Shown here in pieces: positions 10,294 to 55,348 of a DNA stretch of 64,000 bases (its first letter is position 1; each line of letters opens with the position of its first letter). Both the position numbers and the translations under genes were made by a program. The stretch lies in the IMG/VR virus record IMGVR_UViG_3300012346_000220, positions 19,826-83,825 of that record, one strand, 5' to 3'. Origin of the DNA: a virus (lineage: Duplodnaviria > Heunggongvirae > Uroviricota > Caudoviricetes). Below the pieces are notes generated by a model. It saw only the letters and a list, made by a program, of their open reading frames with translations, was not told the origin of the DNA and ran no database searches.

Positions 10294-10740
10294 ATGTTGG
10301 TTGAGTTGGCGGCTTGCAACGCCGCATTTTCTGTAATCAAGCAGGCTCTGGCCAACGGCAAGGAGCTATCCGCGCTCGGCTCCAAGGTCTTCGATTACTT
10401 TGACAACAAGTCGAGAATCCAAGAGAAGGCCACCCAAAAAGGTGGCGGCTCAGACCTTGAAGAGTTCATGGCGCTGGAACAACTCCGGCAGCAAGAGGAG
10501 CACCTGCGCGAGTCCATGGTCTACGCGGGCCGCGCAGGCATGTGGGATGACTGGCAAAAGTTCCAAGCTGCCGCTGCGCGTAAGCGCAGAGAGGCCAAAG
10601 AAGCAGCCGCCCGCGCCATCATTAACCGCAAGAAAAGAGCCGAACAGCTTGTTGAGTATTTTGCTATCGGCCTCGCTGGGTTGATTTTGACCGCCCTGAT
10701 TATTTACGGCATCGTGCTGTACGTCAGGTATCTGCGATGA
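10294..10740 (+). CDS. Coiled-coil protein with C-terminal transmembrane helix (lysis-cassette associated)
   Basis: C-terminal hydrophobic helix IGLAGLILTALIIYGIVLYV. Lies upstream of the lysozyme. Confidence 0.35.
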   Translation: MLVELAACNAAFSVIKQALANGKELSALGSKVFDYFDNKSRIQEKATQKGGGSDLEEFMALEQLRQQEEHLRESMVYAGRAGMWDDWQKFQAAAARKRREAKEAAARAIINRKKRAEQLVEYFAIGLAGLILTALIIYGIVLYVRYLR

Positions 10741-11345
10741 GTGAGAAGCCCGCGTCCACAATTGACAAGGTGCTGGCCTATGTGGACAGCCCTTTCAAGC
10801 TGTTTGCCCTCCTTGTGATGGGCATTGTGGCGTTCGTGGGGTATTTCCTGTGGCAGAACCAAGAGTTCATGCGCGACGCCTACCGCGAATCAAAGAAGCT
10901 GCCTGAGATCAACACCAGTCGGGTCGATGAGACTTCGGCCATGCTGTTCAAGAAGACGGGCGCGGCAACGGTGGCGGTGTTCAAAGTCAACCCGCTGTTC
11001 AACAGTCGCGTGCTCTACAAGGCGTACACCAAGGATGGCCGGGATAAGAGCATTGAGGACATCGACGTCGGGCTGTTCAGCCAGAACTCTGGCAACAACA
11101 ACGACGTGATTGCCTTGATGACCAATCAAATCCCATGCAGCGAGTACCGCTACGCCCAGTCCGAGGTTGGCTTGTGGTACATCGAGAAGGGCGTGGGGTA
11201 CACCTGCCGCGTCAGCGTACCGCCGGACAGTCACCGCTTCGTTGGCCAGATCACGGTGGGCTGGCCGCAGCAGCCCGAAAGTCTCGAACAAGTAAAATTC
11301 ATGCTGGAAATTGCCAGCGCCATGCTAACCAAAAGGGGAAATTGA
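10737..11345 (+). CDS. N-terminally membrane-anchored protein (lysis-cassette associated)
   Basis: TM helix LFALLVMGIVAFVGYFLW near the N-terminus. ATGA overlap with the next gene. Confidence 0.35.
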   Translation: MSEKPASTIDKVLAYVDSPFKLFALLVMGIVAFVGYFLWQNQEFMRDAYRESKKLPEINTSRVDETSAMLFKKTGAATVAVFKVNPLFNSRVLYKAYTKDGRDKSIEDIDVGLFSQNSGNNNDVIALMTNQIPCSEYRYAQSEVGLWYIEKGVGYTCRVSVPPDSHRFVGQITVGWPQQPESLEQVKFMLEIASAMLTKRGN

Positions 11346-11848
11346 TGCTCTCACTGTTTTCAACTCTTGGAGGTCTGCTGATCTCCGGTCTGCCGAAGCT
11401 GCTGGAATACTTTCAGAACAAGGCCGACCAGAAACACGAACTGGCGTTGGCTCAAGTTCAGACCGAGCGTGAACTTGCACTGGCTGCTGCTGGTTTTGCA
11501 GCTCAGGCCAAGATCGAGGAAATCCGCACGGAGCAGGTCTCGATGCAGACGGATGCTCAGATGACTGAGGCAGCACTGGCCCATGACGCCAAGGTTCTGG
11601 AGAAAGCTGCCTCTTGGGTGTCCAGCTACGTGGGCACCGTTCGCCCGACAGTGACCTACATCTTCGTGACTGAGCTGGTTGCCATCAATGCCTTCATGGC
11701 GTTTTACCTGTGGCAGCGCCCCGAACTGATCCAGAGTATCGACGATGTGATCCGCTACTCAGACGTCATCTTCAGCTCTGACGAGATGGCCATGCTCGGC
11801 GGTATTATCGGATTCTGGTTTGGCTCTCGCGGCTGGAACAAGAAATGA
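11345..11848 (+). CDS. Putative holin (multi-TM membrane protein)
   Basis: Start at the internal ATG at 11345 (MLSLFSTLGGLLISGL). Further hydrophobic helices near the C-terminus. Immediately precedes the lysozyme. Confidence 0.4.
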   Translation: MLSLFSTLGGLLISGLPKLLEYFQNKADQKHELALAQVQTERELALAAAGFAAQAKIEEIRTEQVSMQTDAQMTEAALAHDAKVLEKAASWVSSYVGTVRPTVTYIFVTELVAINAFMAFYLWQRPELIQSIDDVIRYSDVIFSSDEMAMLGGIIGFWFGSRGWNKK

Positions 11849-12351
11849 AACTGAGCAAAGCTGGCGCAGACCTGATGCACCGCTTTGAGGGGTGCAGGAA
11901 CAAGCCGTACCTGTGCCCGGCTCACATCTGGACGATTGGCTACGGCCACGTCCTGTACCAAGATCAGATTCGCCTGCCAATGGTGCGCGTGGACGGAAAG
12001 CCAGCGCCCATGATTCGCAAAGAAATGCCACTGAAACCGGAGGATGCCCGTGTCTGGAGCAAGTCAGAAATTGAGGAACTATTCGCGGCTGACATCGCAA
12101 ATTTTGAACGTGGTGTTCTTCGACTTGTTCCCGGCTGTGTTGGCCGTCAAGGCAGCTTTGACGCTCTGGTCAGCATATCCTTCAATTTTGGGCTAGGGAA
12201 CCTCCAGCGCAGCACCATCCGCATGAAGGCCAACCGTGGCGACTGGGAAGGCGCAGCAGAGGCATTCAGGGCTTGGACAAAAGGTGGCGGTAAAGTCCTT
12301 CCGGGACTCGTCAAGCGTCGGGAAGCCGAGATTGCGCTGTTCCTGAGTTAA
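11845..12351 (+). CDS. Endolysin, phage lysozyme (GH24/T4-lysozyme-like)
   Basis: N-terminal LMHRFEGCRNKPYLCPAHIWTIGYGHV matches the catalytic E...D...T region of the GH24 family. Confidence 0.75.
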   Translation: MKLSKAGADLMHRFEGCRNKPYLCPAHIWTIGYGHVLYQDQIRLPMVRVDGKPAPMIRKEMPLKPEDARVWSKSEIEELFAADIANFERGVLRLVPGCVGRQGSFDALVSISFNFGLGNLQRSTIRMKANRGDWEGAAEAFRAWTKGGGKVLPGLVKRREAEIALFLS

Positions 12352-12366
12352 TAGGACAATACCCCC

Positions 12367-14463
12367 ATGCCACTACAAAAAATTCTGTTCAAGCCCGGAG
12401 TGAATCGGGAAAATACCCGCTACACCACCGAAGGCGGGTGGTACGACGGCGACAAAATCCGTTTCCGCCAAGGCACGCCCGAAGTTATTGGTGGCTGGCA
12501 GCGCATTTCGGCCAGCACGTTCATTGGTGTGTGCCGCTCTTTATGGAACTGGGTAACGCTGGGGGGCCTCAATCTGGTGGGCGTCGGCACAAACCTGAAG
12601 TTCTACATTGAAAAGGGCGGGGCATACAACGACATCACGCCAATTCGGGCCAGCAGCACAATCAACAACAACCCTTTTACGGCCACCCTCGGCTCCGCTG
12701 TTATTACCGTAACAGACACGGCGCACGGATGTGTGACAGGGGACTTTGTGACTTTTAGCGGGGCGGTCGGTTTGGGTGGCAACATTACTGCCACCGTGCT
12801 CAACCAAGAGTACCAAGTCACCGTTGTCAACAACGACATCTACACCGTAACTGTTGGCGCTACGGCCAACGCCACGGATGTCTCCGGTTCTCCCGGCGGC
12901 GGAGCTTCGGTTGTTGCCGCGTACCAGCTTAACGTCGGCCCGGCCACGTCCATCCCACTTACTGGCTGGGGCGCAGGTGTTTGGGGTGCAGGTGTTTGGG
13001 GTACAGGCGGCACTTCCAACTCGGTGATCCGGTTGTGGAACCAAGTCAACTACGGCGAAGACTTGCTCTTCGGCCCTCGCGGCGGCGGACTCTACTACTG
13101 GGACGCTACCAGTGGCGTGGCGTCTCGGGGCGTACTTCTGCGCGATCTTGGCGGAACTGCCACCATCACCATCGCTTCCCCCGCCGTTGTCACATCCACG
13201 ATTTTGTACAACGAAGGCGCAGGCATTTCGTTCTCGACCACCGGGGCGTTGCCAACGGGCATCACTGCGGGTACTACGTATTTTGTGTACAACACCGTCG
13301 GGTTGACTTTCAATCTTCTCGATGCCGCGGGCAATATCGTTAATACGTCGGGCACACAATCGGGCGCGCAGACGATTACTCCGACCGATATTCCGCTGAT
13401 GCAAAACTTCTTTACTGTGTCGGGTACGTCGCGGTTCATCATCGCCTACGGCGTAAACGACTACGGCAGCGCCGTGCAGGACCCGATGTTGATCCGCTGG
13501 TCGGCACAAGACGACCCCTACAACTGGACGCCTGACGCAACCAACCAAGCGGGGAGCATCCGCCTGTCGCACGGCTCTGAGATCATCACGGCCATCCAGA
13601 CGCGGCAGGAAATCGTGACCTTCACGGACTCAGCGGTGTTCTCGTTGCAGTACCTCGGACCCCCCTCCGTATGGCAGACGCAATTGCTTGGCGACAACAT
13701 CTCCATCATGAGCCCCAACGCAGTTGCACTGGCTTCTGGCGTGGTGTACTGGATGGGCGTGGACAAGTTCTACACGTACGACGGCCGGGTCCAAACACTC
13801 AACTGCGACGTACGCCGCTACGTGTTCAGCAACTTCAACCAGAGCCAGTCGGCGCAGGTGTTCGCGGGGACCAATGAGGGCTTCAACGAGGTTTGGTGGT
13901 TCTACTGTTCCGCAAACAGCACCGTGGTTGACAAGTATGTGATCTACAACTACCTTGAAAAAATCTGGTATTACGGCACGCTGGGCCGCACCGCATGGCT
14001 GGACTCCGGCTTGCGCGACTACCCGCTGGCGGCTACATACACCTACAACTTGGTGAACCATGAGCAGGGAGTTAACGACAACGAGACGGGCACGACCGCA
14101 GCGATTGCCGCTAACATTTCGTCGTCCGAGTTCGACATTCAAGACGGGCACCAGTTCGGGTTTGTTTGGCGTGTGCTGCCAGACTTGACCTTTGAGACCT
14201 CGTCCAACTCACCAACGGCGCAGCTGCCCACAGTCACTATGACGTTGTACGGCTTGTCCAACTCAGGTTCTGGGGTAACCAGCTCCGCTGGGGCACCAGT
14301 GGCCAAGAGTTCTACATACGTCATCACTGAAGAGTTCACGGGGCAGATTTACACCCGCATGCGCGGCCGACAGATGATCTTCAAGATCGAGTCCGACCAG
14401 ATCAACACAACGTGGCAGATCGGCGCTCCGCGAATTGACATCCGCCCGGATGGGAGACGCTGA
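12367..14463 (+). CDS. Large virion protein (W-rich, possible beta-propeller; GWGAGVWGAGVWG motif)
   Basis: 698 aa. Shares a WG-repeat motif with the 6935..7756 protein. Function not resolved (portal or tail component). Confidence 0.4.
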   Translation: MPLQKILFKPGVNRENTRYTTEGGWYDGDKIRFRQGTPEVIGGWQRISASTFIGVCRSLWNWVTLGGLNLVGVGTNLKFYIEKGGAYNDITPIRASSTINNNPFTATLGSAVITVTDTAHGCVTGDFVTFSGAVGLGGNITATVLNQEYQVTVVNNDIYTVTVGATANATDVSGSPGGGASVVAAYQLNVGPATSIPLTGWGAGVWGAGVWGTGGTSNSVIRLWNQVNYGEDLLFGPRGGGLYYWDATSGVASRGVLLRDLGGTATITIASPAVVTSTILYNEGAGISFSTTGALPTGITAGTTYFVYNTVGLTFNLLDAAGNIVNTSGTQSGAQTITPTDIPLMQNFFTVSGTSRFIIAYGVNDYGSAVQDPMLIRWSAQDDPYNWTPDATNQAGSIRLSHGSEIITAIQTRQEIVTFTDSAVFSLQYLGPPSVWQTQLLGDNISIMSPNAVALASGVVYWMGVDKFYTYDGRVQTLNCDVRRYVFSNFNQSQSAQVFAGTNEGFNEVWWFYCSANSTVVDKYVIYNYLEKIWYYGTLGRTAWLDSGLRDYPLAATYTYNLVNHEQGVNDNETGTTAAIAANISSSEFDIQDGHQFGFVWRVLPDLTFETSSNSPTAQLPTVTMTLYGLSNSGSGVTSSAGAPVAKSSTYVITEEFTGQIYTRMRGRQMIFKIESDQINTTWQIGAPRIDIRPDGRR

Positions 14464-14735
14464 TGGCTGAACTTAATGCAACACCCCCCAACCTCCCGCT
14501 GGCTCCGGACCAGTACGAGCGCCGGTATCAGGATCAACTGAACAACATTCTGCGGCTGTTTTTTAACCAGCTCAACAACCCCGGAGATGTGGGCGCAGCT
14601 ACGTTGAACTTGAACCTGAACACGTTGCCGACAGACGCGGACGAAGCTACCCTGAGACTTGGCGACGTTTTTCGAGACACCACCACGGGCGCTACTGCTA
14701 CAAGCCAAGCGCTTCGCATAAAGACTGCCCCGTGA
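14463..14735 (+). CDS. Hypothetical small virion protein
   Basis: 90 aa. ATGA-coupled to the upstream gene. Confidence 0.3.
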   Translation: MAELNATPPNLPLAPDQYERRYQDQLNNILRLFFNQLNNPGDVGAATLNLNLNTLPTDADEATLRLGDVFRDTTTGATATSQALRIKTAP

Positions 14736-14769
14736 TAACATCCACCAACCCTATTTTTAAGAGGCAAAT

Positions 14770-17613
14770 ATGAGCCTTCACGCACTCGCGGGCCACATGT
14801 CCGCCAAAGGCCGTGGTCCCGACTCGATGTTGGTCCACATGTCGCCCCGAGAAGTCGCAAGCCTTCAAGCGCTTGCGGTGAAAAACGGCACGTCGCTGAC
14901 AATCAACCCCGATACCGGGTTGCCTGAAGCACTGAAGCTCAAAGACATTCTGCCTGCTATTGCAGGCGTTGCGCTTGGCCCCGCCGGGTTTGGTTTGATG
15001 TCCGCCGGTATGGCCGGTTTGACCGTTGGCGGTATCACCACGCTGGCTACCGGCAGCTTGTCTCGCGGGCTCATGGCCGGTATGGGTGCGTACGGTGCTT
15101 CCGGTTTGGCCGAAGGCTTGATGGGGGCAGGGGCGGGGGCGGCGCAGGGAGCGGCAATGTCCGAACTCACGCAAGAACAGATTGCCCAACAAATGGCTGA
15201 AAAAGGCTTGAGTCAACAAGGTGTTTTAAACCAAGCCGCTGCGGACGCCACAAGTAAGTATGCCTCCAGCGGTTTTGGCGATCGCCTGACGCAAGGCGCG
15301 TCGGCTGCGATGAATAACCCAAAGGGTTTTGTGGAAGGCATGGGCGGCTACGGCAAACTTGCACAGTCAGGACTTGCAGCAATCTCCCCCATCATGGCGG
15401 ATCAAGGCGTTCAAACAGCAACGCAGCGTCCTAGCACTCCGGCCAACATCCGCCGGTACAGTTTCGATCCGTACGGTGGAAAATACACTTCCCAAGGCCT
15501 GTACCCCGCAGAAAAAGACCAAGGCATGGCCCAAGGCGGCATCGTGGCGTTGGCTGGCGGAGGTTTTACAGACGCCCAAGTTGCCTCGTATATTCAAAAC
15601 AACAATCTCAGCGGGCAAGCACTCAAAGACGCGGGGGATGTATTTGGTTTAAACGCAGATCAGCTGGGCCGCGCCCAAGCATTGCTTACCACTAAAGACC
15701 CGAGCATTCAGGCTGCAACCGACGCGTACAACGCTTCTGTGGCAGGGCGTCCTGATTTGGTAGCACAAAATCTTGGGTACTACAACCCTGCTGCACAAAG
15801 CGGCTCGGGCTGGGAAGACGTGGTTACCAACCGCTACATACAAGATCAGCCAAACGCAGGCTACGCACAGATTAACGCCGCTAGGCAAGGCTCCGGAATA
15901 ACCAACGAAGATTTAGATCGTAGTTTTGACCGGTACGGCTACTCCGATGCGCTTTACAACGTGACCACTTCGCCGGACTGGAAAAATGAGCAGGGGTTGA
16001 CCGGGTTTGCCGGGTTGTCGTCTAACATTAACGCTTATGTAAATAAGGCGAATGAGGTAAACATGACCCCCGCTGAAAAGCGGGCTCGGGCTTACGATGA
16101 CATGCTAAATTCCGGCATGAACATGAAAGATGTTGTTCGCGCTACTGGCAAAACCATTGACGAACTGTTTCCGGACCGTAAGCCCGTTGTGCCAATCGCT
16201 ACTGCAACAGACCTGCCCGGCGGCGTCAGTGGCGGCGGCAATACCTACGTCAACCCTAACGGTACGGTTACAACAGCGCCCGACATTCCCGGCCGACCAG
16301 AAGGCGGCTTCACAGGAATGGGGCAAGTGCGCGATGCGTACACACAGGGCGGCGGTAGTTTGGGGTACGTCAACGCCGCACCTAAAACAATTGACGAGTT
16401 CAACCAACGCTTTAACAAGCAGTCGGGCAGCTCACTGGCGGCGTACGAATACCTCATGGGCAAAGGCGCGTACCCAACCAACTCCAGCACGACTGAGATC
16501 ATGAAGCCGTACAGTGAGTCAGCGCTGGGTATTGCGCCAGCAGAAGGTCGTCCAACACAAAAATACATCTACGACAACAACTCAAAGACATACAGGACAA
16601 ACCCGGCTTTCATTCCTGTCACATACGACAGCGAAGGCAAACGCGTTGTGGGCGTGTCTGACAACCAAGTACTGGATGCGCTTACCAAAAAGGCAAGCGG
16701 AGGGGTGGTAGGGTACGCATTTGGCGGCACTGCGCAAGAATCCGTGGACGAAGCGCAGCAAAAGCTCAATGACTTTTTGATAAAAAACAACGTGTCGCAT
16801 GAGAGGATTGCGGCAGTGTTGGGCATTTCAGTACCCGAGGCCAAAAAGCGCTACCCGCTAACTAGCCCAACTAAAGCGGCTACGTTTGACACAAACCAAA
16901 TCTACGGCGTCGATGGCGGAGGCGGTGGTGCTGGCGGGTTTGGTGCTCCCGGAGGTGTAACCAGCGGTGTAGCCGATTCCAACTCCATGACCGGCGGTGC
17001 ATTTGCGGCAGCTATGGATGCGCTTGGCTTGTCGCAAGACCCTAGTAGTGTGGGCGTAGTTTCCATGGGCGAGACTGGGTTTGCCGCTGATGCTGCCGCT
17101 GCCGCTGCTGCCGCCGATAACGGTCAAGCCGCAGAAGGGGGGAACACTGCCGCCGGTGTCGCCGCTGGTGCTGCTGATGCTGCTGGTTCCGGTGCTGGTA
17201 CAGGTGATAGCGGTGGCGGTATTGGTGCCGGAGACGGTGGGGGCGGTATTGGTGCTGGTGAAGGCTTGGCCAGAGGTGGTCTCGGCGGTCTCGGCGCTTT
17301 GGCACGCGGCGGTGCAACCTCCCAGTACAACCTTGGCGGCTACTCTGATGGCGGTCGTTTGCTACGCGGTCCCGGTGATGGCGTGTCTGATAGCATCCCT
17401 GCGACAATCGGTAACCGTCAGCCTGCACGCCTTGCTGATGGCGAGTTTGTAGTCCCCGCCCGCATCGTGTCTGAGCTGGGTAACGGCTCGACTGAAGCAG
17501 GCGCACGCAAGCTATACGCCATGATGGACCGTGTCCAAAAAGCCCGTGGTAAAACCACTGGCAAAGGCCGCGTTGCTGCCAACACACGTTCTGACAAACA
17601 CCTTCCCGCATAA
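14770..17613 (+). CDS. Large internal virion protein with Gly/Ala low-complexity C-terminal half
   Basis: 947 aa. Poly-Gly/Ala tracts (GGGGAGGFGAPGG..., AAADAAAAAAAAD). No enzymatic motif recognised. Confidence 0.45.
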   Translation: MSLHALAGHMSAKGRGPDSMLVHMSPREVASLQALAVKNGTSLTINPDTGLPEALKLKDILPAIAGVALGPAGFGLMSAGMAGLTVGGITTLATGSLSRGLMAGMGAYGASGLAEGLMGAGAGAAQGAAMSELTQEQIAQQMAEKGLSQQGVLNQAAADATSKYASSGFGDRLTQGASAAMNNPKGFVEGMGGYGKLAQSGLAAISPIMADQGVQTATQRPSTPANIRRYSFDPYGGKYTSQGLYPAEKDQGMAQGGIVALAGGGFTDAQVASYIQNNNLSGQALKDAGDVFGLNADQLGRAQALLTTKDPSIQAATDAYNASVAGRPDLVAQNLGYYNPAAQSGSGWEDVVTNRYIQDQPNAGYAQINAARQGSGITNEDLDRSFDRYGYSDALYNVTTSPDWKNEQGLTGFAGLSSNINAYVNKANEVNMTPAEKRARAYDDMLNSGMNMKDVVRATGKTIDELFPDRKPVVPIATATDLPGGVSGGGNTYVNPNGTVTTAPDIPGRPEGGFTGMGQVRDAYTQGGGSLGYVNAAPKTIDEFNQRFNKQSGSSLAAYEYLMGKGAYPTNSSTTEIMKPYSESALGIAPAEGRPTQKYIYDNNSKTYRTNPAFIPVTYDSEGKRVVGVSDNQVLDALTKKASGGVVGYAFGGTAQESVDEAQQKLNDFLIKNNVSHERIAAVLGISVPEAKKRYPLTSPTKAATFDTNQIYGVDGGGGGAGGFGAPGGVTSGVADSNSMTGGAFAAAMDALGLSQDPSSVGVVSMGETGFAADAAAAAAAADNGQAAEGGNTAAGVAAGAADAAGSGAGTGDSGGGIGAGDGGGGIGAGEGLARGGLGGLGALARGGATSQYNLGGYSDGGRLLRGPGDGVSDSIPATIGNRQPARLADGEFVVPARIVSELGNGSTEAGARKLYAMMDRVQKARGKTTGKGRVAANTRSDKHLPA

Positions 17614-17624
17614 GGAGCCACGAC

Positions 17625-46924: not shown

Positions 46925-47102
46925 CTTTCTCTTGTTCTTTCAATAACTTGATGCGCTCTGCCACAGCTACACCAAGTCCTTTGTAGTACCCGGATTCGTG
47001 CTGTTCCAACTCGCGAGTCCATCTCCGCATCTCGTCTATCCATGCTGGCATCATGGCAAATCTTGCTATGTGGCTCACCATGTGTTCTAAGTGATTGTTC
47101 AT
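46905..47102 (-). CDS. Hypothetical protein
   Basis: 65 aa. Confidence 0.3.
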   Translation of the reverse strand: MNNHLEHMVSHIARFAMMPAWIDEMRRWTRELEQHESGYYKGLGVAVAERIKLLKEQEKGGKSND

Positions 47103-47126
47103 TCATGTTATTTTGTTGGTTGTTGC

Positions 47127-47495: not shown

Positions 47496-48466
47496 GCTTT
47501 GTAATACTCCATCAATTCGGCTGACTTATGGCCCTTCAACTGTGTCGATGCTTTGTCAAAGTAAAGACCAATTGTTTGCTCTCCGCTCTTTGACCCGCTG
47601 TAATGGCGTTGTTTAATGCACCGGATAAAGCTGTCTGGTTCATCTCGCTTTTCAGCCATATCACCTTTGACTTCGACTTCCATCTCTTTCAGTTTGTTTC
47701 GCCAAACAACAAAAGCAGAATCAGCAATGTCTGTGATTGACGATGATCCCTTGATGTCGCTTTTGTCTGGTGTCGCGCCTGACTTTTCCAACTTCTTTGT
47801 GTGGTGGACAAGGTGAACATGGCAACCCGTGTCTTTAGCAATGTCAAAAATGCTTGAAACAAAGTCCTTTTCGCCGTTGTAGTTGTCCGTGCCACTCACC
47901 ACCTTTTGCAGGTTGTCAATGATGAAATGCTGCACTCCAAAAGTGTCAATGCTGTATCTCATAGCACCCAAAACAGAGTTTGCAGTCACATCGCCCAATT
48001 TGTGAAACAACCACATATTTTTTGAAAAACCAATCATCTCCTCTGCTGTTTCGTCCAACAAATCAATTTCGGCATTGGTCAGCTGAATATCCTCGTCTCC
48101 AAAGCAAACATGGCTGTAAAGTCTCAGCATCCTAGAAAACGTCTCTCCGGCGGTCATTTCCAACGATGCAAGGCACAGTTTTTGTTGTTGTCCAAGAAGG
48201 GAAAGAATAACTTGCATCAACACCAAAGTCTTTCCGCTACTGTTCTCACCAGCCCAGATCGTCAACTCACCAGGCCGAAAGTTGAACAAAGACCGAGTTT
48301 TCTCCCAAGGCAAGTAAATTCTGTTTGATGTGTCCTTGTTTCGGTATGAGTCTTTAAGTGTTTGCAAAAACTCAGAGGAATGAACAATCGTTTGTTTGTG
48401 TTCCGTCTCTTTAAGGTAGGCAGCAAAGTCAATGTCGTCAGGTAGATAGTTCATTTTCAAATCCAA
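47471..48466 (-). CDS. DnaB-like replicative helicase (RecA-fold C-terminal domain)
   Basis: Walker A GENSSGKT, Walker B-like HFIIDNLQ, and a HVHLVHHTKK segment. Confidence 0.6.
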   Translation of the reverse strand: MDLKMNYLPDDIDFAAYLKETEHKQTIVHSSEFLQTLKDSYRNKDTSNRIYLPWEKTRSLFNFRPGELTIWAGENSSGKTLVLMQVILSLLGQQQKLCLASLEMTAGETFSRMLRLYSHVCFGDEDIQLTNAEIDLLDETAEEMIGFSKNMWLFHKLGDVTANSVLGAMRYSIDTFGVQHFIIDNLQKVVSGTDNYNGEKDFVSSIFDIAKDTGCHVHLVHHTKKLEKSGATPDKSDIKGSSSITDIADSAFVVWRNKLKEMEVEVKGDMAEKRDEPDSFIRCIKQRHYSGSKSGEQTIGLYFDKASTQLKGHKSAELMEYYKAWPHGVYQ

Positions 48467-49092
48467 GTTTGTTGTGTTTGTTTTTCAGGAATTGCCAATT
48501 GGTCTTTCCATCTTTCACCGTTAAGCCAAGTTGCAGGGTTTGGGATGTATTGACCATCATCCTTAAGCCAAGAAGACTGTTTGCTTTGTTTTTCAATTGC
48601 ATCAAGCATTACCTGCAAAAGATCAGAATCAACTTTTCTTTTTTGAAATGCACGCATTGCAGCGTCTTTGCCAACCTTTTTTGGATATGCCTTCCAGAAA
48701 ATCTCAAAAAAATACATCTTTTGTTTTTCTGTCTCTTCCTCTTCTCTCCTCTTCTCTGGGATAGCATCTGTGTGCATGTTGCTAGCATCTGCTGGCGTGT
48801 TGCTAGCATGAATAAAAAAGCCCTTATCAATCAAAGACTTACGCCCAATCTGAATGTCCTTCAAAGAAAATCGAAGCCTAAACGTTAATTCCTCATCGCT
48901 CGCATCAAACTCCCCGCCATTGCCCTTACTTTCGCTTGCTAGCAACCAAAGTAAAGGAGCTAGCGCCTTGCTAGCAATTGGCAATGCAGCAAAAGCTCGG
49001 TCATTTAGCATGTCGCGGTGCAGCTTAATCCATGGTGGGCAACGATCTTTGTAATGTTGAAAAGCGCCCCAGTTTTTTGGTTTTAAGATCAT
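48457..49092 (-). CDS. Replication initiator / replisome organiser (N-terminal phage replisome-organiser-like domain)
   Basis: N-terminus WGAFQHYKDRCPPWIKLHRDMLNDRAFAALPIASKALAPLLWLLASE. Sits next to the helicase. Confidence 0.55.
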   Translation of the reverse strand: MILKPKNWGAFQHYKDRCPPWIKLHRDMLNDRAFAALPIASKALAPLLWLLASESKGNGGEFDASDEELTFRLRFSLKDIQIGRKSLIDKGFFIHASNTPADASNMHTDAIPEKRREEEETEKQKMYFFEIFWKAYPKKVGKDAAMRAFQKRKVDSDLLQVMLDAIEKQSKQSSWLKDDGQYIPNPATWLNGERWKDQLAIPEKQTQQTWI

Positions 49093-49274
49093 TGGAATCT
49101 TGCCTTTTCAATAGCCATGTAAGCATTAAACTCAACAGAGTCAAATCCGTATTTCATGGCAACTTCGCATGAACCACAAATAGAAATACTTGATTCAACG
49201 TCTCCTTCTTTAAGACGTTTTTTGATTTCTTTAATTGCCGCATACAGCAAAGAAATTTTTTCGTGTGATTGCAT
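49089..49274 (-). CDS. Hypothetical small protein
   Basis: Start at ATG 49274. A possible 39-aa micro-ORF lies upstream at 49276..49395. Confidence 0.3.
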   Translation of the reverse strand: MQSHEKISLLYAAIKEIKKRLKEGDVESSISICGSCEVAMKYGFDSVEFNAYMAIEKARFQ

Positions 49275-49404
49275 CTCATACCCCCAATCGTTTAGCAATA
49301 GCCTTCAATGCGGCCTCAATCTGTTCTGGTGTTGCATCAGGGTGCAAGTGCAACCAAGTTGACTTTTCGCTCTCGTAGCGTTGTTGCTTATCCATATCAA
49401 AACT

Positions 49405-49455
49405 CCAAAAGAAAAACCCCTGAAGGCCGGTAGTACAAGTACCAACTTTCAGGGG
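49405..49455 (-). terminator. Intrinsic terminator on minus strand
   Basis: Minus-strand RNA forms CCCCUGAA...UUCAGGGG followed by UUUUUCUUUU. Lies about 75 nt after the stop of 49529..49726. Confidence 0.6.
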
Positions 49456-49528
49456 TTCGCCGTGGGTAACGGCTTAGATGTATCAGCGTCTTGTACACGC
49501 CACATCTAAACCGTCAGCCCGTATTTTA

Positions 49529-49726
49529 TCAAACTTTTGGAGGTTGTCCAAAATATATTTTTTGACCATCAGGCCGTGTGCGCTTTGTAACCGTCCATCC
49601 GTGTGTGTATTGCATCCTTGAAATACTCGAATGGGGACTTGTAGTTGGTAAAGCACGGGCAACTTCAGCAGCCGTTACGCCATGTTTGCGCTTGAGTAGG
49701 ATAGCTAGTTTGTCAGAGTTGGTCAT
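49529..49726 (-). CDS. Small basic putative DNA-binding protein
   Basis: 65 aa. LAILLKRKHGVTAAEVARAL, an HTH-like segment. Confidence 0.4.
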   Translation of the reverse strand: MTNSDKLAILLKRKHGVTAAEVARALPTTSPHSSISRMQYTHGWTVTKRTRPDGQKIYFGQPPKV

Positions 49727-49980
49727 TTTGCGCTCCTTGCTTGGATCATTGCATCTGCCATCTTGTAAGCATCTTCGGCAGTCCGTTGTTCATATCTGTT
49801 TACCCCAATAAGGCCAACGTATTTATCGGAGCTAAGAATTGCTTGCATCGCCTTGGCTGCAAAGTAGTCTCGCAGGGTCATGCCGTGAAAATGAATTTTG
49901 TCTAAATCGCCAACTACAGGCATGGCTGCCCCACCTGTTTTTACATCACTCATCTCTATCTCCTTGGTTAAAAGTTTCAT
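49723..49980 (-). CDS. Hypothetical protein (first gene of the minus-strand early operon)
   Basis: 85 aa. ATGA overlap with the next gene. Confidence 0.4.
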   Translation of the reverse strand: MKLLTKEIEMSDVKTGGAAMPVVGDLDKIHFHGMTLRDYFAAKAMQAILSSDKYVGLIGVNRYEQRTAEDAYKMADAMIQARSAK

Positions 49981-50296
49981 TGTGAGGATGTTTCCTTACT
50001 TTACGCTGACAGCGTTTATATGCAAGTTAGGAAAGTTAGCGCAATTCGATAACTTTGTGTATTAGGGTTTGTCTGGATAAAAAATATCTTGTCTGTCAGT
50101 TTCGCGTAAGTTTCAGCCCTCAGAATTGAGGCCATACACAGCGATAAGCAGTTGCTGTTAAGCGAGTCAAAGGAACCTAGGCCGGAGACTAATTAACCTG
50201 CTTATCGGTGTGTATACACCCCGCTAGTCTGACTCCTTGACAAGCGGTTTCCCCAGGTCATGTGATCTGGGGTTTTTTAAGGACAAAGGAAAAATC
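49981..50296. promoter_or_regulatory. Divergent early control region: direct repeats AAGTTAG x2 and TTGTCTG x2, 10-bp inverted repeat (50142..50151 / 50198..50207), perfect palindrome GTGTATACAC (50210..50219), TTGACA at 50236
   Basis: 316-bp AT-richer ORF-free gap between divergently oriented gene blocks. Elements read directly. Confidence 0.55.
50251..50278 (+). terminator. Intrinsic terminator/attenuator hairpin 19 nt upstream of first + strand start codon
   Basis: CCCCAGGUCA-UG-UGAUCUGGGG (9-10 bp stem incl. one G.U) followed by UUUUUU, then AAGGA SD and ATG 50297. Confidence 0.6.
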
Positions 50297-50551
50297 ATGT
50301 ACTCAGATCAAAACAAAGCTGCTGACAAATACGACTTCTATTTGTTGGTCAACATGGGTGGCGAAGTGGACTGTGACTGCCATTTCAACATTGAGTCAGA
50401 CGGTGAAGGCTCTTGGAATGTCTCAGAATTTGAGCTGTTCTTTCTTGGCGAAAACGTGACTCGCATGGTTTGCTCTGAAGCAGTTGAAGAACAAATCTAC
50501 GATCAGGCAAACGAAGTTGAAGCAGCAATCCGTGAACAATTGGAGCGATGA
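50297..50551 (+). CDS. Hypothetical acidic protein (Cys-containing)
   Basis: ATG 50297 preceded by AAGGAAAAATC. The ORF-track start at 50237 is a TTG. Confidence 0.45.
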   Translation: MYSDQNKAADKYDFYLLVNMGGEVDCDCHFNIESDGEGSWNVSEFELFFLGENVTRMVCSEAVEEQIYDQANEVEAAIREQLER

Positions 50552-50646
50552 AATGAGTAACGATTGGAAAAACAGAATTTTGGACTGCTTGTTGGCTACG
50601 GCCATCGGCATTGGTTTGGCTGCTGTTATTGTTTACGGGTGGTGAT

Positions 50647-50856
50647 ATGAAAACAACGATTGAAATGGCCCGTGAGGCTGGCTTAGAGGGAATGACAGGA
50701 CATCCCGCACTTCAACGCCTTGTTGCCATTGTCCGTGCTGACGAACGTGCAAAACGACACCTTCCAGACGTACTAACCCAAGAATACGGTGACAGTGCTG
50801 ACTATGTAGAAGGCTGGAATGAATGCCGTGAAGTTATGGCGGGGATGATGAAATGA
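50647..50856 (+). CDS. Hypothetical protein (VRADER paralog 1)
   Basis: ATG 50647. A 30-aa TM micro-ORF lies at 50553..50645 just upstream. Confidence 0.4.
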   Translation: MKTTIEMAREAGLEGMTGHPALQRLVAIVRADERAKRHLPDVLTQEYGDSADYVEGWNECREVMAGMMK

Positions 50857-51080
50857 GAGACACGATAGATATGGCCTGTGAGTCAGATTTGCTGACCCAC
50901 ATCCCGTTCCGTAGCGACACCGAGGTTTCGGTTGCTCTCAAAGCCTTTGAAGCCCTTGTTCGTGCTGATGAGCGAAGCGTAGAGCGTGAGGCGTTGCTTG
51001 AGATTGTTTACAGCTACTGCAACAATCTTTCATGGAACGATGACTTTCAAGAAGACATCCGAGCAAGGGGGAACACATGA
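50853..51080 (+). CDS. Hypothetical protein (VRADER paralog 2)
   Basis: Shares AL..(L/F)VA(I/L)VRADER with the previous gene. Confidence 0.4.
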   Translation: MRDTIDMACESDLLTHIPFRSDTEVSVALKAFEALVRADERSVEREALLEIVYSYCNNLSWNDDFQEDIRARGNT

Positions 51081-51225
51081 TAGTTGTCTACCGCCTCTAC
51101 CGTTTCAAGCGCCGCTGTGGTTTGCCTCGCATCCATGCGCTAAAACAAGCAATTCAAGCAGCTTTGCGCCCGTAAGCGCCTAGTAAGCTTCAAAGAACAA
51201 AATACAGCTTTCAACAGGAGAAATC

Positions 51226-51801
51226 ATGCAAGTTTACAAAGCAATCAACGCTGTCCAGGCTGAGTTATCAGTCCAAGGCATTGCCAAAAATCAACGTAAC
51301 GGCCAAGGCGCTGGCTACAACTTTCGAGGAATTGATGACGTTTTGAACGCTCTTTCTCCTTTGCTGTCTAAGCACGGTCTTTGCATTTTGCCCCGTGTCT
51401 TGGCCCGTGAGTGCGTTGAGCGTCAATCTAAGAACGGTGGTGCATTGTTCTACATCACAGTAGAAGTCGAGTTTGATTTTGTATCGTCCGAGGATGGCAC
51501 AAAACACACCGTCAAGACGTTTGGCGAGGCAATGGATAGCGGCGATAAGGCAACCAACAAAGCCATGTCAGCGGCTTATAAATATGCTTGCTTTCAGGCG
51601 TTCAGCATTCCAACCGAAGCCAAAGAAGACGCTGATTATCAGACACACGAAGTCAAGCCAACACTGACAAACGCCCGTTTTGCCCAAGCTGTCGAACGTA
51701 TCAAAGAGGGAAAGTACACCACGGACAAGCTGCGCGAAACTTTCTCTTTGACTCAAGAACAAGAAGACGCATTGGTTGGAGCAATTGCAAATGCTGAATA
51801 A
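51226..51801 (+). CDS. ERF-family single-strand annealing protein
   Basis: AKNQRNGQGAGYNFRGIDDVLNALSPLLSKHGL and KAMSAAYKYACFQAFSIP resemble the ERF superfamily core. Confidence 0.55.
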   Translation: MQVYKAINAVQAELSVQGIAKNQRNGQGAGYNFRGIDDVLNALSPLLSKHGLCILPRVLARECVERQSKNGGALFYITVEVEFDFVSSEDGTKHTVKTFGEAMDSGDKATNKAMSAAYKYACFQAFSIPTEAKEDADYQTHEVKPTLTNARFAQAVERIKEGKYTTDKLRETFSLTQEQEDALVGAIANAE

Positions 51802-52432
51802 ACCACTGCTTTTCCGTGCGTCCAGCTTGGGCGACATCATGACCGACCCAAAAGGCAAAGACGAGGTTTTGTCTGTCGGTGCTAAGACCGCCATTACAAA
51901 GATGGCTAAAGAGGCTGTTTACGGCTTTGACGAGCGCGTTTCATCCAAGTACATGACCAAAGGCATTGAGGTTGAAGATCAGTCAATTTCCTTGCTCAAC
52001 TCTGTTTTGTTCACCGACTATTCCAAAAACACAGAGCGCAAAACAAATGATTGGGTAACAGGCGAGTGCGACATTTTTACAGGGTCAAAGATCATCGACA
52101 TTAAATCGTCTTGGTCGTTGTCCACGTTTCCCGTGTTGTCAGAACAGGGCGAGGATAAGGGCTATATGTGGCAACTCGCCGCCTATATGATGCTTTGGGA
52201 TGTTGACCATTCCCAGATCGCTTATTGCCTTGTTTCCACGCCTGAAAATCTGATTGGCTATGAAGATCCACAGCTTCATAATGTTGACCACATTAACCCA
52301 GAATTACGGGTTACGCTGGTGAGTTACGAACGCGACAAGGCCAAAGAATCCAAGATCAAAGAAAAGACTGAAGCCGCTCGTGACTACTACAAACAAGTAA
52401 TTGAACGAATTGCAAACGAACACACTTTCTAG
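51791..52432 (+). CDS. PD-(D/E)XK recombination exonuclease
   Basis: GECDIF...IIDIKSS...YMWQLAAYM has a D...(D/E)xK arrangement. Overlaps the end of the ERF gene. Confidence 0.5.
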   Translation: MLNKPLLFRASSLGDIMTDPKGKDEVLSVGAKTAITKMAKEAVYGFDERVSSKYMTKGIEVEDQSISLLNSVLFTDYSKNTERKTNDWVTGECDIFTGSKIIDIKSSWSLSTFPVLSEQGEDKGYMWQLAAYMMLWDVDHSQIAYCLVSTPENLIGYEDPQLHNVDHINPELRVTLVSYERDKAKESKIKEKTEAARDYYKQVIERIANEHTF

Positions 52433-52486
52433 TAAGAACCGTGTAAGCAAACACCAATAAACTCAAGTTTTAACCAAGGAACCAAA

Positions 52487-52780
52487 ATGGCCCACAAAAC
52501 CCACGATCTCGCTGTCAAAGTTGGCAGCTACACAAACCAACAAGGCGAAACCAAAGGACGTTATCAGAATGTCGGTGCGTTGATGCAAGGCGACAACGGC
52601 CAGTTCATCATGCTTGCCAAATGGTTCAATCCAGCAGGTGTGACAGATGACCGAGGCGGCGAATCAATCCTGATTTCAGTGTTTGAGCCGAAAGAAAAGG
52701 GCGAAGCACCACGCCAAGCAAGGCCACAGCGCCAAGCCTCAGCATCCAGCGGATTCGATGACATGGAAGCGCCCTTCTAA
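52487..52780 (+). CDS. Small SSB-like protein with acidic C-terminal tail (..GFDDMEAPF)
   Basis: The C-terminal tail resembles the SSB-Ct interaction motif. The body is short (97 aa). Confidence 0.35.
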   Translation: MAHKTHDLAVKVGSYTNQQGETKGRYQNVGALMQGDNGQFIMLAKWFNPAGVTDDRGGESILISVFEPKEKGEAPRQARPQRQASASSGFDDMEAPF

Positions 52781-52782
52781 CC

Positions 52783-53133
52783 ATGAAACTCACAACACCA
52801 ACTAGCGGCCCAGGTTCACAAATGGGCACTAAATCCCGCGCAATTCTTGAATGCTTGCGAAAAAACGGTAAGTTAAACCGCCTTGACCTTGAAATGAAAC
52901 TCAATATCGGGCCTTTGAATACCACAATCAACCGAATGTATCAATTGGGCTATGTCAAGAATCCAATTGGTATTGCAGGGATGTACGAAATCACTCAGGC
53001 AGGACGTGTTGCACTAGGTGAAGCACTTGAGATTAAATCGGCAGGTGTGGAACGTATTTGCAACGGTTCTAGCCGTGAGATCTACATTCCTGGCATCCAT
53101 TCTGTCGCCCGAGTAGGAATTGCACGGGTATGA
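52783..53133 (+). CDS. Winged-helix transcriptional regulator
   Basis: AILECLRKNGKLNRLDLEMKLNIGPLNTTINRMYQLGYV. Confidence 0.45.
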   Translation: MKLTTPTSGPGSQMGTKSRAILECLRKNGKLNRLDLEMKLNIGPLNTTINRMYQLGYVKNPIGIAGMYEITQAGRVALGEALEIKSAGVERICNGSSREIYIPGIHSVARVGIARV

Positions 53134-53227
53134 ACGCACTTAAAGTCATTGCATACGGCTTGTTGACTTCATTTTTAGGATTGTTGTTGATTTGCTTTAT
53201 CTCTTACACAGTACACTGGATTGCATC

Positions 53228-53413
53228 ATGACTACAGACGAAAAAGAAGCAATCGCCGCTGAAAAGGTCATTCACTCTGCCTACCATCATGTGATGAGTT
53301 ATGCAAAGAATGAAGACATTGAAGCCGCTACCATTGCGCTATTATGGGCAGCATTCGAAACTGAAGCTAAACGATTCGGTTTATCGGATTGGCGCGGATT
53401 AAAATTGAATTGA
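53228..53413 (+). CDS. Hypothetical small protein
   Basis: ATG 53228. ATGA overlap with the next gene. Confidence 0.3.
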   Translation: MTTDEKEAIAAEKVIHSAYHHVMSYAKNEDIEAATIALLWAAFETEAKRFGLSDWRGLKLN

Positions 53414-53664
53414 TGGTTAAGCAAGGTGACGCATGGCCCATAGCCATGAAAGTCGTGCAGGACTGGGGATTCTCGGTTGCCATCAACGGGTCTAAACGGC
53501 TGCTTGTCGGCCTAGTCGGACTCATAGGCGATGTAAAGCGTTTGGAGCCTATGCCAAAGCTGGATTTCGTAACCAGCACTATCACGCATGAGCCTTTTTG
53601 CGGAGCAACCAAGCATTGCAGGGGTGCAATGATGCAAACGGGTTCAGCCGTGATGGTCGCTTAG
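53413..53664 (+). CDS. Hypothetical small protein
   Basis: 83 aa. Confidence 0.3.
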   Translation: MVKQGDAWPIAMKVVQDWGFSVAINGSKRLLVGLVGLIGDVKRLEPMPKLDFVTSTITHEPFCGATKHCRGAMMQTGSAVMVA

Positions 53665-53760: not shown

Positions 53761-54132
53761 TCAACCTAATTCGTAATGCGGGCCATCGTAAAAGCTCTTG
53801 AAGTCACCACCCCAACGGATGTCGATTTCCAGCTCTTTTGCGGCCTGTTTAACGAACGGAGCAAGGTGATCGTATGCAGCCTTGTCCCATGTCACTTTCC
53901 CGTCTTTAAGCGCCCATAGATCAACTGCATGGCCCGTTAGGTGCTTAGAGTTGAGAGTCTTGCTCTTACCCTCTGCAAACAGCTTGGCCTGGCGCTCTTT
54001 GGTGCGTAGACCCTCGCCCACAGTAAAGTCTGTGTCGGTCAATTCAATTGCACGTTTGACCACTTTAACGAGGTCTTCATGTACGCCTTCAAGGGTTTTA
54101 AGCGACTTTGCGCCAAGAACAAATTTAGTCAT
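53761..54132 (-). CDS. Endolysin, peptidase M15 (L-Ala-D-Glu / D-Ala-D-Ala carboxypeptidase-like)
   Basis: SKHLTGHAVDL (the S.H..G.A.D zinc-binding motif) plus a downstream W.GD... motif. Confidence 0.75.
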   Translation of the reverse strand: MTKFVLGAKSLKTLEGVHEDLVKVVKRAIELTDTDFTVGEGLRTKERQAKLFAEGKSKTLNSKHLTGHAVDLWALKDGKVTWDKAAYDHLAPFVKQAAKELEIDIRWGGDFKSFYDGPHYELG

Positions 54133-54605
54133 TTCAAACCCTTAATCATGGCGTCTGTCTTGTCTTTACTCGATTTGCTAGAACCGAAAAAGAACTGCAA
54201 GATCGTGGCAACAATCGTCCCCAAAAGAAAACCCAAAATCGTATCGGCAAAGCGAACCGAAGTTTCAGGAATGGTCAGGAACGTGATTGCACAAATGTAG
54301 ACCACGGCAAAGATCGACCAAAACGCCGCCAAGTAATAGATAAACCGTTTGCTGAAAACGTCATCCTGCGCCAATGCAATCTCTTGCATGTGCCGTGCAC
54401 CATCACGGTCTTTTTGCTCTAACTCAGCCCATTTGAATTCATGCTCACGAAGGGCAGACAAGTCCTCTACAGGCATTTCAGGTTTTAGCTCAATGCCCGT
54501 TTTCTCGCTCACATAGTCAACACCTTTATCCACCACCACCTGGGCAAGTTTGGGTAGATTATTTGTCACCAGTGTGCTGATTATTCCCGCTAGAAGTGGA
54601 GCCAT
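54129..54605 (-). CDS. Membrane lysis protein (holin/spanin-class) with two C-terminal TM helices
   Basis: GAGG SD. Helices YYLAAFWSIFAVVYICAITFL and ILGFLLGTIVATILQFFFG. Confidence 0.45.
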   Translation of the reverse strand: MAPLLAGIISTLVTNNLPKLAQVVVDKGVDYVSEKTGIELKPEMPVEDLSALREHEFKWAELEQKDRDGARHMQEIALAQDDVFSKRFIYYLAAFWSIFAVVYICAITFLTIPETSVRFADTILGFLLGTIVATILQFFFGSSKSSKDKTDAMIKGLK

Positions 54606-54792
54606 GATTGACCTCTATCTTGATGTTAAACACGCCGATTGTGGTTAGGATCAGTTGACCAACCCACTTTACAAACTCAACTTTCGCAGTCGCTCCACCT
54701 ATACCATCCGCATCTTTTACCTCATCGGGTAAATCTACCGGAGTGGCACAGGCAGTAACCAAACAACAAATGATAATTAGACGCTTGACCAA
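54559..54792 (-). CDS. Small lipoprotein (o-spanin-like), overlapping start of downstream lysis gene
   Basis: TTG start. Lipobox LVTAC after a hydrophobic signal. Its 3' end overlaps the 54129..54605 gene in another frame. Confidence 0.4.
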   Translation of the reverse strand: MVKRLIIICCLVTACATPVDLPDEVKDADGIGGATAKVEFVKWVGQLILTTIGVFNIKIEVNHGSTSSGNNQHTGDK

Positions 54793-55085
54793 GGTGTGCC
54801 AGAAGCCTTTTTAGGGGCTTTCTGTTCAGCAATGTTTGTAGCCAATGAAGCATCTACAGCAGCAACACCTTCAGTGCCCAATGAAGCCTTGACCCACTCA
54901 ATAACCTTTGCTTCGGTCAATGAGTCGTAGGGGATGAGGTTCATACCATCGGTCTTTGTAAAACTGACAGTTGAATAAGTAGAGGCTGAATGTTCACCGT
55001 CTACTTGACTCGCGGTAAAATGCACAAAGAAAATAAATTTATCGGCTGTGTTGTAGTCGGTTTGAGTGATTTTCCAATTAGCCAT
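54777..55085 (-). CDS. Hypothetical protein in lysis cassette
   Basis: Start ATG 55085 with an AAGGA SD. Confidence 0.35.
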   Translation of the reverse strand: MANWKITQTDYNTADKFIFFVHFTASQVDGEHSASTYSTVSFTKTDGMNLIPYDSLTEAKVIEWVKASLGTEGVAAVDASLATNIAEQKAPKKASGTPWSSV

Positions 55086-55093
55086 GTTCATCC

Positions 55094-55348
55094 TTAAAAG
55101 TGAGAGCAATAAAACCCGAGAGCGCCACCAGCCGAAGTGACCAGAGCATCCCATACGTCAGGAGTGTGATTTTCTTTGTTCAAAGCGTCATAGAGTTCTT
55201 TCAAGAACCCTGCAATTACCGATAAAGCAAAGGCGTACTGAGGGCCAGTGAACGGCAAGAACACAGCGAACAGAATGGCCCCGGCAATAAAGTGTGCAAC
55301 TTTATCCGCTGAAATGTTGTTTAACCTTTTTAAGGTTTGCTCAATCAT
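55094..55348 (-). CDS. Holin-like small membrane protein
   Basis: 84 aa with 2-3 hydrophobic helices (HFIAGAILFAVFLPF, AFALSVIAGFL). Confidence 0.45.
   Translation of the reverse strand: MIEQTLKRLNNISADKVAHFIAGAILFAVFLPFTGPQYAFALSVIAGFLKELYDALNKENHTPDVWDALVTSAGGALGFYCSHF

Follow-up and report, generated by a model that had tools for sequence, protein, structure and literature searches.

The 64,000 nucleotides analyzed here (positions 19,826 to 83,825 of IMG/VR record IMGVR_UViG_3300012346_000220, assigned to the Caudoviricetes; this whole stretch is referred to as the window) encode two lysis cassettes and two sets of genes for replication and recombination, raising the question of why a single viral contig should contain both. 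If real, one phage with two full lysis and replication systems would represent a striking redundancy or a very recent genome fusion, and a preliminary description of the window had proposed that it is either one phage of hybrid or mosaic make-up or a pair of elements of phage origin fused end to end. Sequence comparisons show that the window contains parts of two complete, unrelated phage genomes that lie on one contig, and we suggest, with a probability of about 0.65, that they were joined by the assembler. The doubled functions are those of two phages that each have a replication kit and a lysis cassette of their own, with no sign of cooperation, and the co-residence of the two sets on one contig is most likely not a biological feature. 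Phage 1 occupies the window from position 1 to about 43.1-43.6 kb and is a podovirus-type phage of about 62-63 kb with a GC (guanine plus cytosine) content of 0.57; phage 2 extends from ~43.9 kb to 64 kb and beyond and is a lambda-like siphovirus of ~36 kb with a GC content of 0.47. Of the earlier proposals, that of two elements holds; that of a single hybrid is not supported, and the elements are joined inside a shared early-gene block rather than end to end.

Two compartments with separate relatives

The list of open reading frames (ORFs) together with Pfam and PHROG scans divides the window into five strand blocks in the order +, -, -, +, -:

1-26964, + strand: block i, podovirus-type virion genes
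27103-43393, - strand: block ii, DUF927 primase-helicase, SPFH protein, SNF2, HNH endonuclease, PD-(D/E)XK nuclease, PolA, many small ORFs and glutaredoxin
43404-49980, - strand: block iii, small membrane ORF, paralog B (see below), HNH endonuclease, NinG, C5 methyltransferase, DnaB-like helicase and replication initiator
50237-53664, + strand: block iv, ERF and exonuclease
53761-63928, - strand: block v, M15 peptidase cassette, with a siphovirus tail module upstream

These blocks fall into two compartments of different composition. GC content is 0.57 (range 0.54-0.60) from position 1 to ~43.4 kb and 0.47 (0.43-0.51) from ~43.6 to 64 kb; the drop sits near 43.4 kb, and there is no intergenic gap at the step. 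Tetranucleotide frequencies correlate at 0.90-0.96 inside each compartment and with the compartment's own relatives, and the early regions of one compartment correlate with those of the other at only 0.62-0.76. The homogeneous base and oligonucleotide composition expected of a single hybrid genome is, thus, not found.

The relatives of the high-GC compartment are complete phages in their own right. PolA has relatives at 283 loci in IMG/VR with up to 97% amino acid identity, and several of these loci are on contigs of 61.4-62.9 kb, each beginning elsewhere on a common map, as complete, circularly permuted genomes would. The 62,536-bp contig L001, extended by L083, is collinear with window positions 26953-41467 at ~91-92% nucleotide identity. 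Upstream on the same strand, L001/L083 carry glutaredoxin, an array of small paralogs, an RtcB-like gene and others, followed by a divergent large terminase, and they contain no DnaB-like, NinG, ERF or siphovirus tail genes. Among the best 120 matches listed, relatives of the large terminase subunit (TerL) of the phage 1 type are found on contigs of 60.7-66.4 kb. As a separate observation, the best 120 matches listed also include terminases of this type on contigs of 73,561, 81,585, 82,088 and 91,438 bp, and over-length, possibly multi-genome contigs may recur in this abundant group.

The low-GC compartment has a different set of relatives. The DnaB-like helicase has one relative in IMG/VR, on the 31-kb contig L081 (99% amino acid identity; GC 0.41-0.52), which is collinear with window positions 54792-43239. 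In L081, NinG is followed by a gene similar to paralog A (see below), the small terminase subunit TerS, TerL and a large ORF that we take as the portal, without a match to a portal family. The 36,883-bp contig L332 encodes ERF, exonuclease and NinG proteins that are 83%, 91% and 80% identical, respectively, to those of the window; in L332 and L334, two metagenomic relatives by NinG, NinG runs into a TerL-like gene. L335 ends before any terminase gene, and in L338 (40,846 bp) NinG is followed by a large ORF that has no match to a reference protein and is a presumed TerL. In all relatives of this half with enough downstream sequence (L081, L332 and L334), NinG leads to a terminase and never to the PolA kit. 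TerL relatives of the phage 2 type are on contigs of 36-40 kb among the best 120 matches listed. For neither type do the best 120 matches include a contig of 99,355 or 35,354 bp. A search with the gpJ-like tail protein returned only L327, a distant relative with high GC content, and when the two halves were compared by megablast with 50,697 records of cultured and GenBank phages, no relatives were returned except for a methyltransferase fragment. The preliminary description had reasoned that close relatives with exactly the double gene set would speak for a stable lineage; the relatives carry one half each.

The preliminary description also reported the 14-mer AAGGAAAAATCATG at positions 931, 9704 and 50286 and regarded its presence in both compartments as an argument for co-evolution in one genome. 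The positions are correct. Each copy ends in the ATG of a gene, and a copy with one mismatch is present at 18649, giving 4 matches observed versus 0.04 expected from shuffled sequences. The 14-mer consists of a Shine-Dalgarno sequence, a spacer and the ATG and is found at late genes of phage 1 and at one gene of phage 2; AAGGA-N6-ATG sites number only seven in the entire window. However, L081, which has no phage 1 genes, carries the 14-mer at the site orthologous to 50286, and the sequences flanking the copies have no similarity. The 50286 copy is therefore lineage 2's own, and the 14-mer is no evidence of co-evolution in one genome; at most, it reflects the translation optimum of a shared host or a common gene pool.

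The join inside a shared early-gene family

At the join, the gene order on the - strand is NinG, HNH, paralog B, a 56-amino acid (aa) ORF, paralog A and glutaredoxin. The three central features are:

42947-43393, - strand: paralog A, member of the early-gene family 'PVQEPVAW..YTTPPAAQRQW..KEKNT'
43404-43574, - strand: 56-aa ORF with two transmembrane (TM) segments, its start overlapping the stop of paralog B (ATGA); 94% nucleotide identity to L082
43571-43996, - strand: paralog B, the junction gene, a full-length family member

A and B are paralogous (E=2e-6) and have in common the motifs LAAP(V/M)QEP and YTTPPAAQRQ and the ending KEKNT, and the sole 31-mer that is repeated in the window lies in A (43091-43121) and B (43739-43769). 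Typical of the family are a coiled N terminus, two motifs ('PVQEPVAW' and 'YTTPPAAQRQWVGLTDEE') and a C-terminal 'KLKEKNT' followed by a stop codon that overlaps the next ATG; it has no match in Pfam or PHROG. At least six copies are present in L001 (5182-8657), others are present in L081 (12856-13452 and 14051-14569) and L082 (197-1111), and the family also occurs in siphovirus-type contigs and in contigs of T7-like size. Several small early ORFs of the two lineages are distant homologues with 35-47% identity. One homologue of the paralog family (P0022) has a Lar (restriction alleviation) domain, Pfam PF14354.

The lineage to which the window is most similar changes within this array. The upstream spacer and ribosome binding site (RBS) of paralog B match lineage 2: both lie, together with a NinG-type 3' end, in the interval 44119-~44005 of the window to which L081 is similar. 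From the last ~30 nucleotides of paralog B onward, the window matches lineage 1 in the form of L082, an independent 2.6-kb contig from another sample that is 94% identical to 43600-43230 and then continues with phage 1 early genes. The N-terminal part of paralog A has 94-100% nucleotide identity to L082 and ~80% to the A-like gene of L081; because both contigs match paralog A, an A-type gene is present at this spot in both lineages. The lineage switch falls between 43993 and about 43115. A crossover inside or just after paralog A, as deduced from L081 alone, was dropped because L082 shows the 56-aa ORF and paralog A in lineage 1. At 529-699 of L082, the 56-aa ORF has a GC content of ~0.43-0.45, well below its high-GC context, and this suggests that it was acquired from a low-GC phage.

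An independent assembly is available in Logan, which assembles each public run separately and in which every 31-mer is by construction distinct within the contigs of a run (PMC12424806). We used the Logan k=31 contigs of run ERR3489831. Contig ERR3489831_3168 (35,354 bp, of which 29 kb were covered, the first 6 kb lying outside) contains genes for portal, head, connector, tail, lysis, ERF/exonuclease, DnaB-like helicase, NinG and HNH, the portal, head and connector genes preceding the tail module, and the gene order of its lysis cassette is identical to that in the window. The last 10,802 bp of this contig are 100% identical to window positions 54715-43914, and the contig ends 83 nucleotides into paralog B. 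Contig ERR3489831_36380 (2,788 bp) is 100% identical to window positions 43115-40328 and begins inside the A/B repeat. The 0.8 kb between them is crossed by neither contig. Because the break at 43914 has no matching repeat within the window, run ERR3489831 must contain a second context for the sequence at this position; the end of ERR3489831_36380 at 40328 likewise coincides with no repeat of the window. One clean 35-kb contig versus a 2.8-kb fragment suggests a different population structure of the two halves. The preliminary description had pointed to assembly evidence of a chimeric join as a finding that would speak against a mosaic phage, and such evidence is now available in part: in a run with identical sequences the assembly does not cross the join, and the siphovirus forms its own 35-kb contig.

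Thus, the two halves exist separately as a 35,354-bp siphovirus contig and as circularly permuted podovirus relatives of ~62 kb, and sequence common to both is found where they meet, with A-type genes in both lineages, a 31-mer repeat and Logan breaks on both sides of the join. The size of the source contig fits with this. Proteins of both halves of the window have exact matches recorded on a 99,355-bp contig from the Joint Genome Institute (JGI), where paralog B is 100% identical to protein P0001, and this contig is ~1.6 and 2.7 times as large as the genomes of the relatives of its two parts. Adding 35.35 kb, the ~0.8 kb shared block and ~63 kb gives 99.4 kb, i.e., one copy of each genome.

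The genomes are joined within the ~0.8 kb made up of paralog B, the 56-aa ORF and paralog A (~43996-42947). This block, part of a promiscuous family that is present in multiple copies and at this very position in both lineages, would act as a repeat or branch in the assembly graph. Two circular genome graphs would touch at this block and form a figure-8, and an assembler walking each circle once would generate 63 + 36 = 99 kb. Simulations have linked the chimeric contigs of viral metagenomes to functions or sequences that are conserved between genomes (PMC3901335).

Alternatives to the proposed join by the assembler

A podovirus and a siphovirus that infected the same cell could also have recombined once in the shared early block, which would be nearly identical in the two, to generate a real cointegrate or heterodimer, a 99-kb molecule with both complete genomes and two hybrid junctions. 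We consider this unlikely, although a good part of the above would look the same. Both lineages have homologous A-type genes at the crossover and occur together in IMG sample 3300020044 (L002, L040, L074 and L081), the ERF and exonuclease of phage 2 could promote the exchange, and the source contig would equally have the size of the two genomes summed. A single-crossover cointegrate and a join by the assembler would yield the same graph. A further point against an assembly origin is the junction itself, which keeps the reading frame and looks entirely like genes: the ORFs follow one another without a break, stop and start codons overlap, the RBSs are intact and paralog B is of full length. This is the look of a real homologous recombinant, and an in-register chimera at shared sequence looks identical. 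An assembly with k=31 breaks at any shared 31-mer, so that a genuine cointegrate with two copies of the block gives the same Logan breaks. Moreover, the only exact repeat within the window is 31 nucleotides, and an assembler that works with large k-mers would not be misled by so short a repeat; a longer shared block is something that we infer rather than see directly.

Nevertheless, we infer that the join was made by the assembler rather than inside a cell. An assembly origin is favored because a 99-kb molecule should not be packageable by either capsid, which, judged from the sizes of the relatives, would hold ~62 kb and ~36 kb. A cointegrate would then exist only as a rare intermediate inside the cell, from which most of the reads are unlikely to derive. 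Suggestive in addition are that the halves behave differently in the Logan assembly, with a clean siphovirus contig of 35 kb versus a podovirus piece of 2.8 kb that ends at 40328 without a repeat, and that no relative or second sample shows the junction: the search with paralog A found one contig, L082, which has no such junction, and the exact 50-mer spanning the join is absent from the viral_contigs, genome_contigs and metagenome_contigs collections (the source contig is also outside these). A recent exchange of the block between unrelated phages that occur together, with the 'PVQEP..TTPPAAQRQWVGLT..KLKEKNT' family serving as a portable recombination linker between lineages, is compatible with a chimeric join.

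The idea of a stable natural lineage of ~99 kb, hybrid or mosaic, that retains both lysis cassettes, both replication kits and both virion modules, is close to refuted. Gene packing and the style of the RBSs continue over the boundary, and the 14-mer and several small early genes are common to both halves. However, lineage 2 by itself accounts for the 14-mer at 50286, none of the relatives has both sets while each half has self-sufficient relatives, GC content differs by 10 points, and the virion systems are unrelated, with a podovirus adaptor and ejection proteins in one and a tape measure and gpJ in the other. Instead of a single virion module and a size matching that of its relatives, there is a contig of 99,355 bp versus relatives of 61-66 kb and 36-40 kb. 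We give just as little credence to two prophages that are adjacent or nested in a bacterial chromosome or plasmid. Adjacent prophages are common and the early operons of phage 2 diverge in lambdoid fashion, but there is no integrase, att-like repeat, tRNA or host-like gene in the 64-kb window, nor in the 29 kb of Logan contig _3168, and tandem prophages were rejected on this account. In addition, the join is inside phage early genes rather than at a genome end, 99,355 bp leaves no space for host flanks, and the relatives of phage 1 are circularly permuted free genomes.

Gene content of the two phages and related systems

The late arm of phage 1 runs from the capsid gene over SU10-type adaptors, fibres and a holin-like gene with a GH24 lysozyme to ejection proteins, and converges with an early arm encoding PolA, the DUF927 protein, SNF2 and the PD-(D/E)XK nuclease:

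82-762, + strand: C-terminal part of the capsid protein (Pfam Phage_capsid_4; 96% identical to IMG/VR contigs)
3101-3799 and 5255-5911, + strand: SU10-type adaptor paralogs (Pfam SU10_adaptor, both)
4585-5274, + strand: GIY-YIG endonuclease between the adaptor paralogs (Pfam GIY-YIG)
7757-8794, + strand: fibre-like protein (PHROG tail fibre)
8803-9705, + strand: Gly-rich protein (Pfam Gly_rich_2)
9715-10194, + strand: tail (fibre) assembly chaperone (PF16778, E=7e-22), with a copy of the 14-mer at its start
10294-10740, + strand: cassette 1, TM protein of 148 aa (C-terminal TM segment)
10737-11345, + strand: cassette 1, TM protein of 202 aa (N-terminal TM segment)
11345-11848, + strand: cassette 1, holin-like protein of 167 aa (phrog_6637)
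11845-12351, + strand: cassette 1, GH24 lysozyme/endolysin (PF00959, E=9e-36)
12367-26964, + strand: virion/ejection proteins of 698, 90, 947, 341, 525 and 2217 aa (PHROG virion structural and DNA ejection; order conserved in relatives)
20311-26964, + strand: the 2217-aa protein (Pfam LPD38, large polyvalent protein family), the end of the podovirus late operon
27103-30090, - strand: DUF927 primase-helicase, 995 aa (Pfam DUF927)
30538-31446, - strand: SPFH/Band 7 protein, 302 aa (Pfam)
33691-35250, - strand: SNF2 (Pfam)
35237-35704, - strand: HNH_3 endonuclease (Pfam)
35955-36650, - strand: PD-(D/E)XK nuclease (Pfam)
37233-39224, - strand: PolA (Pfam)
42714-42950, - strand: glutaredoxin (Pfam)

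Cassette 1 consists of membrane proteins followed by a GH24 lysozyme, as the preliminary description had it, and its third ORF probably starts at 11345 rather than 11135. Both cassettes lie where that description placed them and have an endolysin; its notion that both are complete is not borne out for cassette 1, among the ORFs of which no spanin and no convincing lipoprotein were recognized. In both cassettes, TM ORFs are directly upstream of the endolysin, and in neither do they match a named holin family; homology between the two holin-like proteins was considered and found unsupported (E=0.011 over 31 aa). In 34 of the 80 related loci, including contigs of 61-65 kb, the pair of holin-like protein and lysozyme is directly upstream of the 698-aa protein, and because the pair keeps this position we regard cassette 1 as native to the phage 1 lineage.

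The kit 1 operon joins PolA, the PD-(D/E)XK nuclease, the SNF2 helicase and the primase-helicase, as previously proposed. The proposed DUF2815 protein was not found, there being no Pfam match in the kit 1 ORFs tested (a few small ORFs of the operon were outside the test), and a prim-pol N-terminal domain was not evident in the 995-aa protein. The HNH_3 gene at 35237-35704, between SNF2 and the PD-(D/E)XK nuclease, is missing in L001, where the interval is ~260 nucleotides versus ~700 nucleotides in the window, and is probably a mobile insertion; two HNH_3 homologues are present elsewhere in L081. The SPFH/Band 7 gene is inside the podovirus replication operon and adjoins the primase-helicase gene. 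In the late arm, the SU10 adaptor paralogs are split by the GIY-YIG/NUMOD3 homing-type endonuclease and three small ORFs (3101-5911). The 2217-aa LPD38 protein is probably an ejected virion protein, and its C-terminal end diverges from L001.

The features of phage 2 are:

44044-44748, - strand: HNH endonuclease (Pfam/PHROG)
44848-45423, - strand: NinG (Pfam/PHROG)
45402-46151, - strand: C5 cytosine methyltransferase (Pfam/PHROG)
47471-48466, - strand: DnaB-like helicase (Pfam/PHROG)
48457-49092, - strand: replication initiator/organiser (PHROG replication families, E=1e-30)
49723-49980, - strand: 85-aa first gene of the rightward early operon, which spans 44044-49980
50237-53664, + strand: leftward early operon (ERF, exonuclease and small ORFs; the gene starting at 50297 bears a copy of the 14-mer)
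51226-51801, + strand: ERF (Pfam/PHROG)
51776-52432, + strand: exonuclease (phrog_5715, E=8e-70)
53761-54132, - strand: cassette 2, Peptidase_M15_4 (PF13539, E=2e-11)
54129-54605, - strand: cassette 2, holin-like protein of 158 aa with two TM segments
54559-54792, - strand: cassette 2, lipoprotein (lipobox VTAC)
54777-55154, - strand: cassette 2, soluble DUF7936 protein, not listed in the preliminary description
55094-55348, - strand: cassette 2, TM protein of 84 aa (TM prediction)
55417-57582, - strand: tail module, tailspike-like protein
57579-59618, - strand: tail module, gpJ-like protein
59618-60007, - strand: tail module, DUF6950 protein
59995-60543, - strand: tail module, tail protein
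60540-61292, - strand: tail module, distal tail protein
61289-63247, - strand: tail module, tape measure
63237-63928, - strand: tail module, chaperones

The lipobox, the TM ORFs and the PF13539 match fit the earlier reading of cassette 2 as holin-like gene, lipoprotein, membrane protein and M15 peptidase. Similarly, the Pfam and PHROG matches agree with the earlier assignment of a replication organiser, a DnaB-like helicase, ERF and an exonuclease to kit 2, which has the composition of a lambdoid module, i.e., an initiator with a DnaB-type helicase, nin-type genes, and an annealing protein with an exonuclease. The HNH ORF at 44044-44748 ends in a NinG-type C terminus of ~25 aa (..EGLIEIAKHYNAETRRLKREA) that resembles NinG of L081 and L332 more closely than it does the NinG encoded just upstream in the window, and the HNH gene is missing from L081; judged from its sequence, it looks like an insertion that retained a duplicated or foreign NinG 3' end. 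The C5 methyltransferase gene, which provides the window's only DNA-level match to GenBank phages, shares 87% identity over 435 nucleotides with two 'Manatee Spring' phage records and resembles that of Ralstonia phage Gerry as well. This match speaks for an origin in freshwater and for mobility of the methyltransferase gene.

Among cultured phages, the podoviruses Pseudomonas phage KPP25 and Rhizobium phage RHph_TM3_14A (60.9-64.1 kb) provide the best PolA matches to phage 1, with 97-99% coverage; however, PolA identity is only 29-31%, and the likeness rests on PolA, with no cultured match at the DNA level. Phage 2 resembles lambda and P22 in its early region, with divergent operons that have an initiator, a DnaB-type helicase, NinG and, in the relatives, the terminase on one arm and ERF with an exonuclease on the other. 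It differs from these phages in the location of its lysis cassette, which comes after the tail module and is convergent with the ERF operon rather than placed behind a Q-like gene. Neither an integrase nor a recognizable repressor of phage 2 was found in the window or in the 29 kb of Logan contig _3168.

In lambdoid phages, mosaic joints arise by exchange at short conserved sequences between modules, and classical mosaicism swaps modules while keeping one copy per function and a packageable genome size. The join described here is similar in that the crossover would fall in an array of small early genes resembling the nin region, with conserved gene ends (the stop of KLKEKNT overlapping the next ATG), and in that there are apparent scars of earlier exchanges, i.e., the HNH ORF with a foreign NinG 3' end and the low-GC 56-aa ORF in a high-GC lineage. 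By contrast, every function is doubled here, and the total equals two genomes summed. The contig also resembles multi-genome contigs of viral metagenomes, being likewise over-length and joined in sequence common to two co-occurring viruses. CheckV found IMG/VR contigs far longer than expected, which were deemed probable assembly artefacts (PMC8116208). These cases comprise one genome repeated, whereas here two unrelated genomes are joined once, probably as an artefact.

Altogether, the evidence points to two ordinary phages on one contig rather than to a doubly equipped phage, and the value of this finding is one of caution. Duplicated core functions, a step in GC content and a size equal to the summed genomes of two relatives form a signature of multi-genome contigs, which, taken at face value, would inflate estimates of genome size, gene content and novelty. 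The biological lead is the paralog family itself, a promiscuous, multi-copy early-gene family that is common to very different freshwater phages and sited where their genomes exchange or mis-join.

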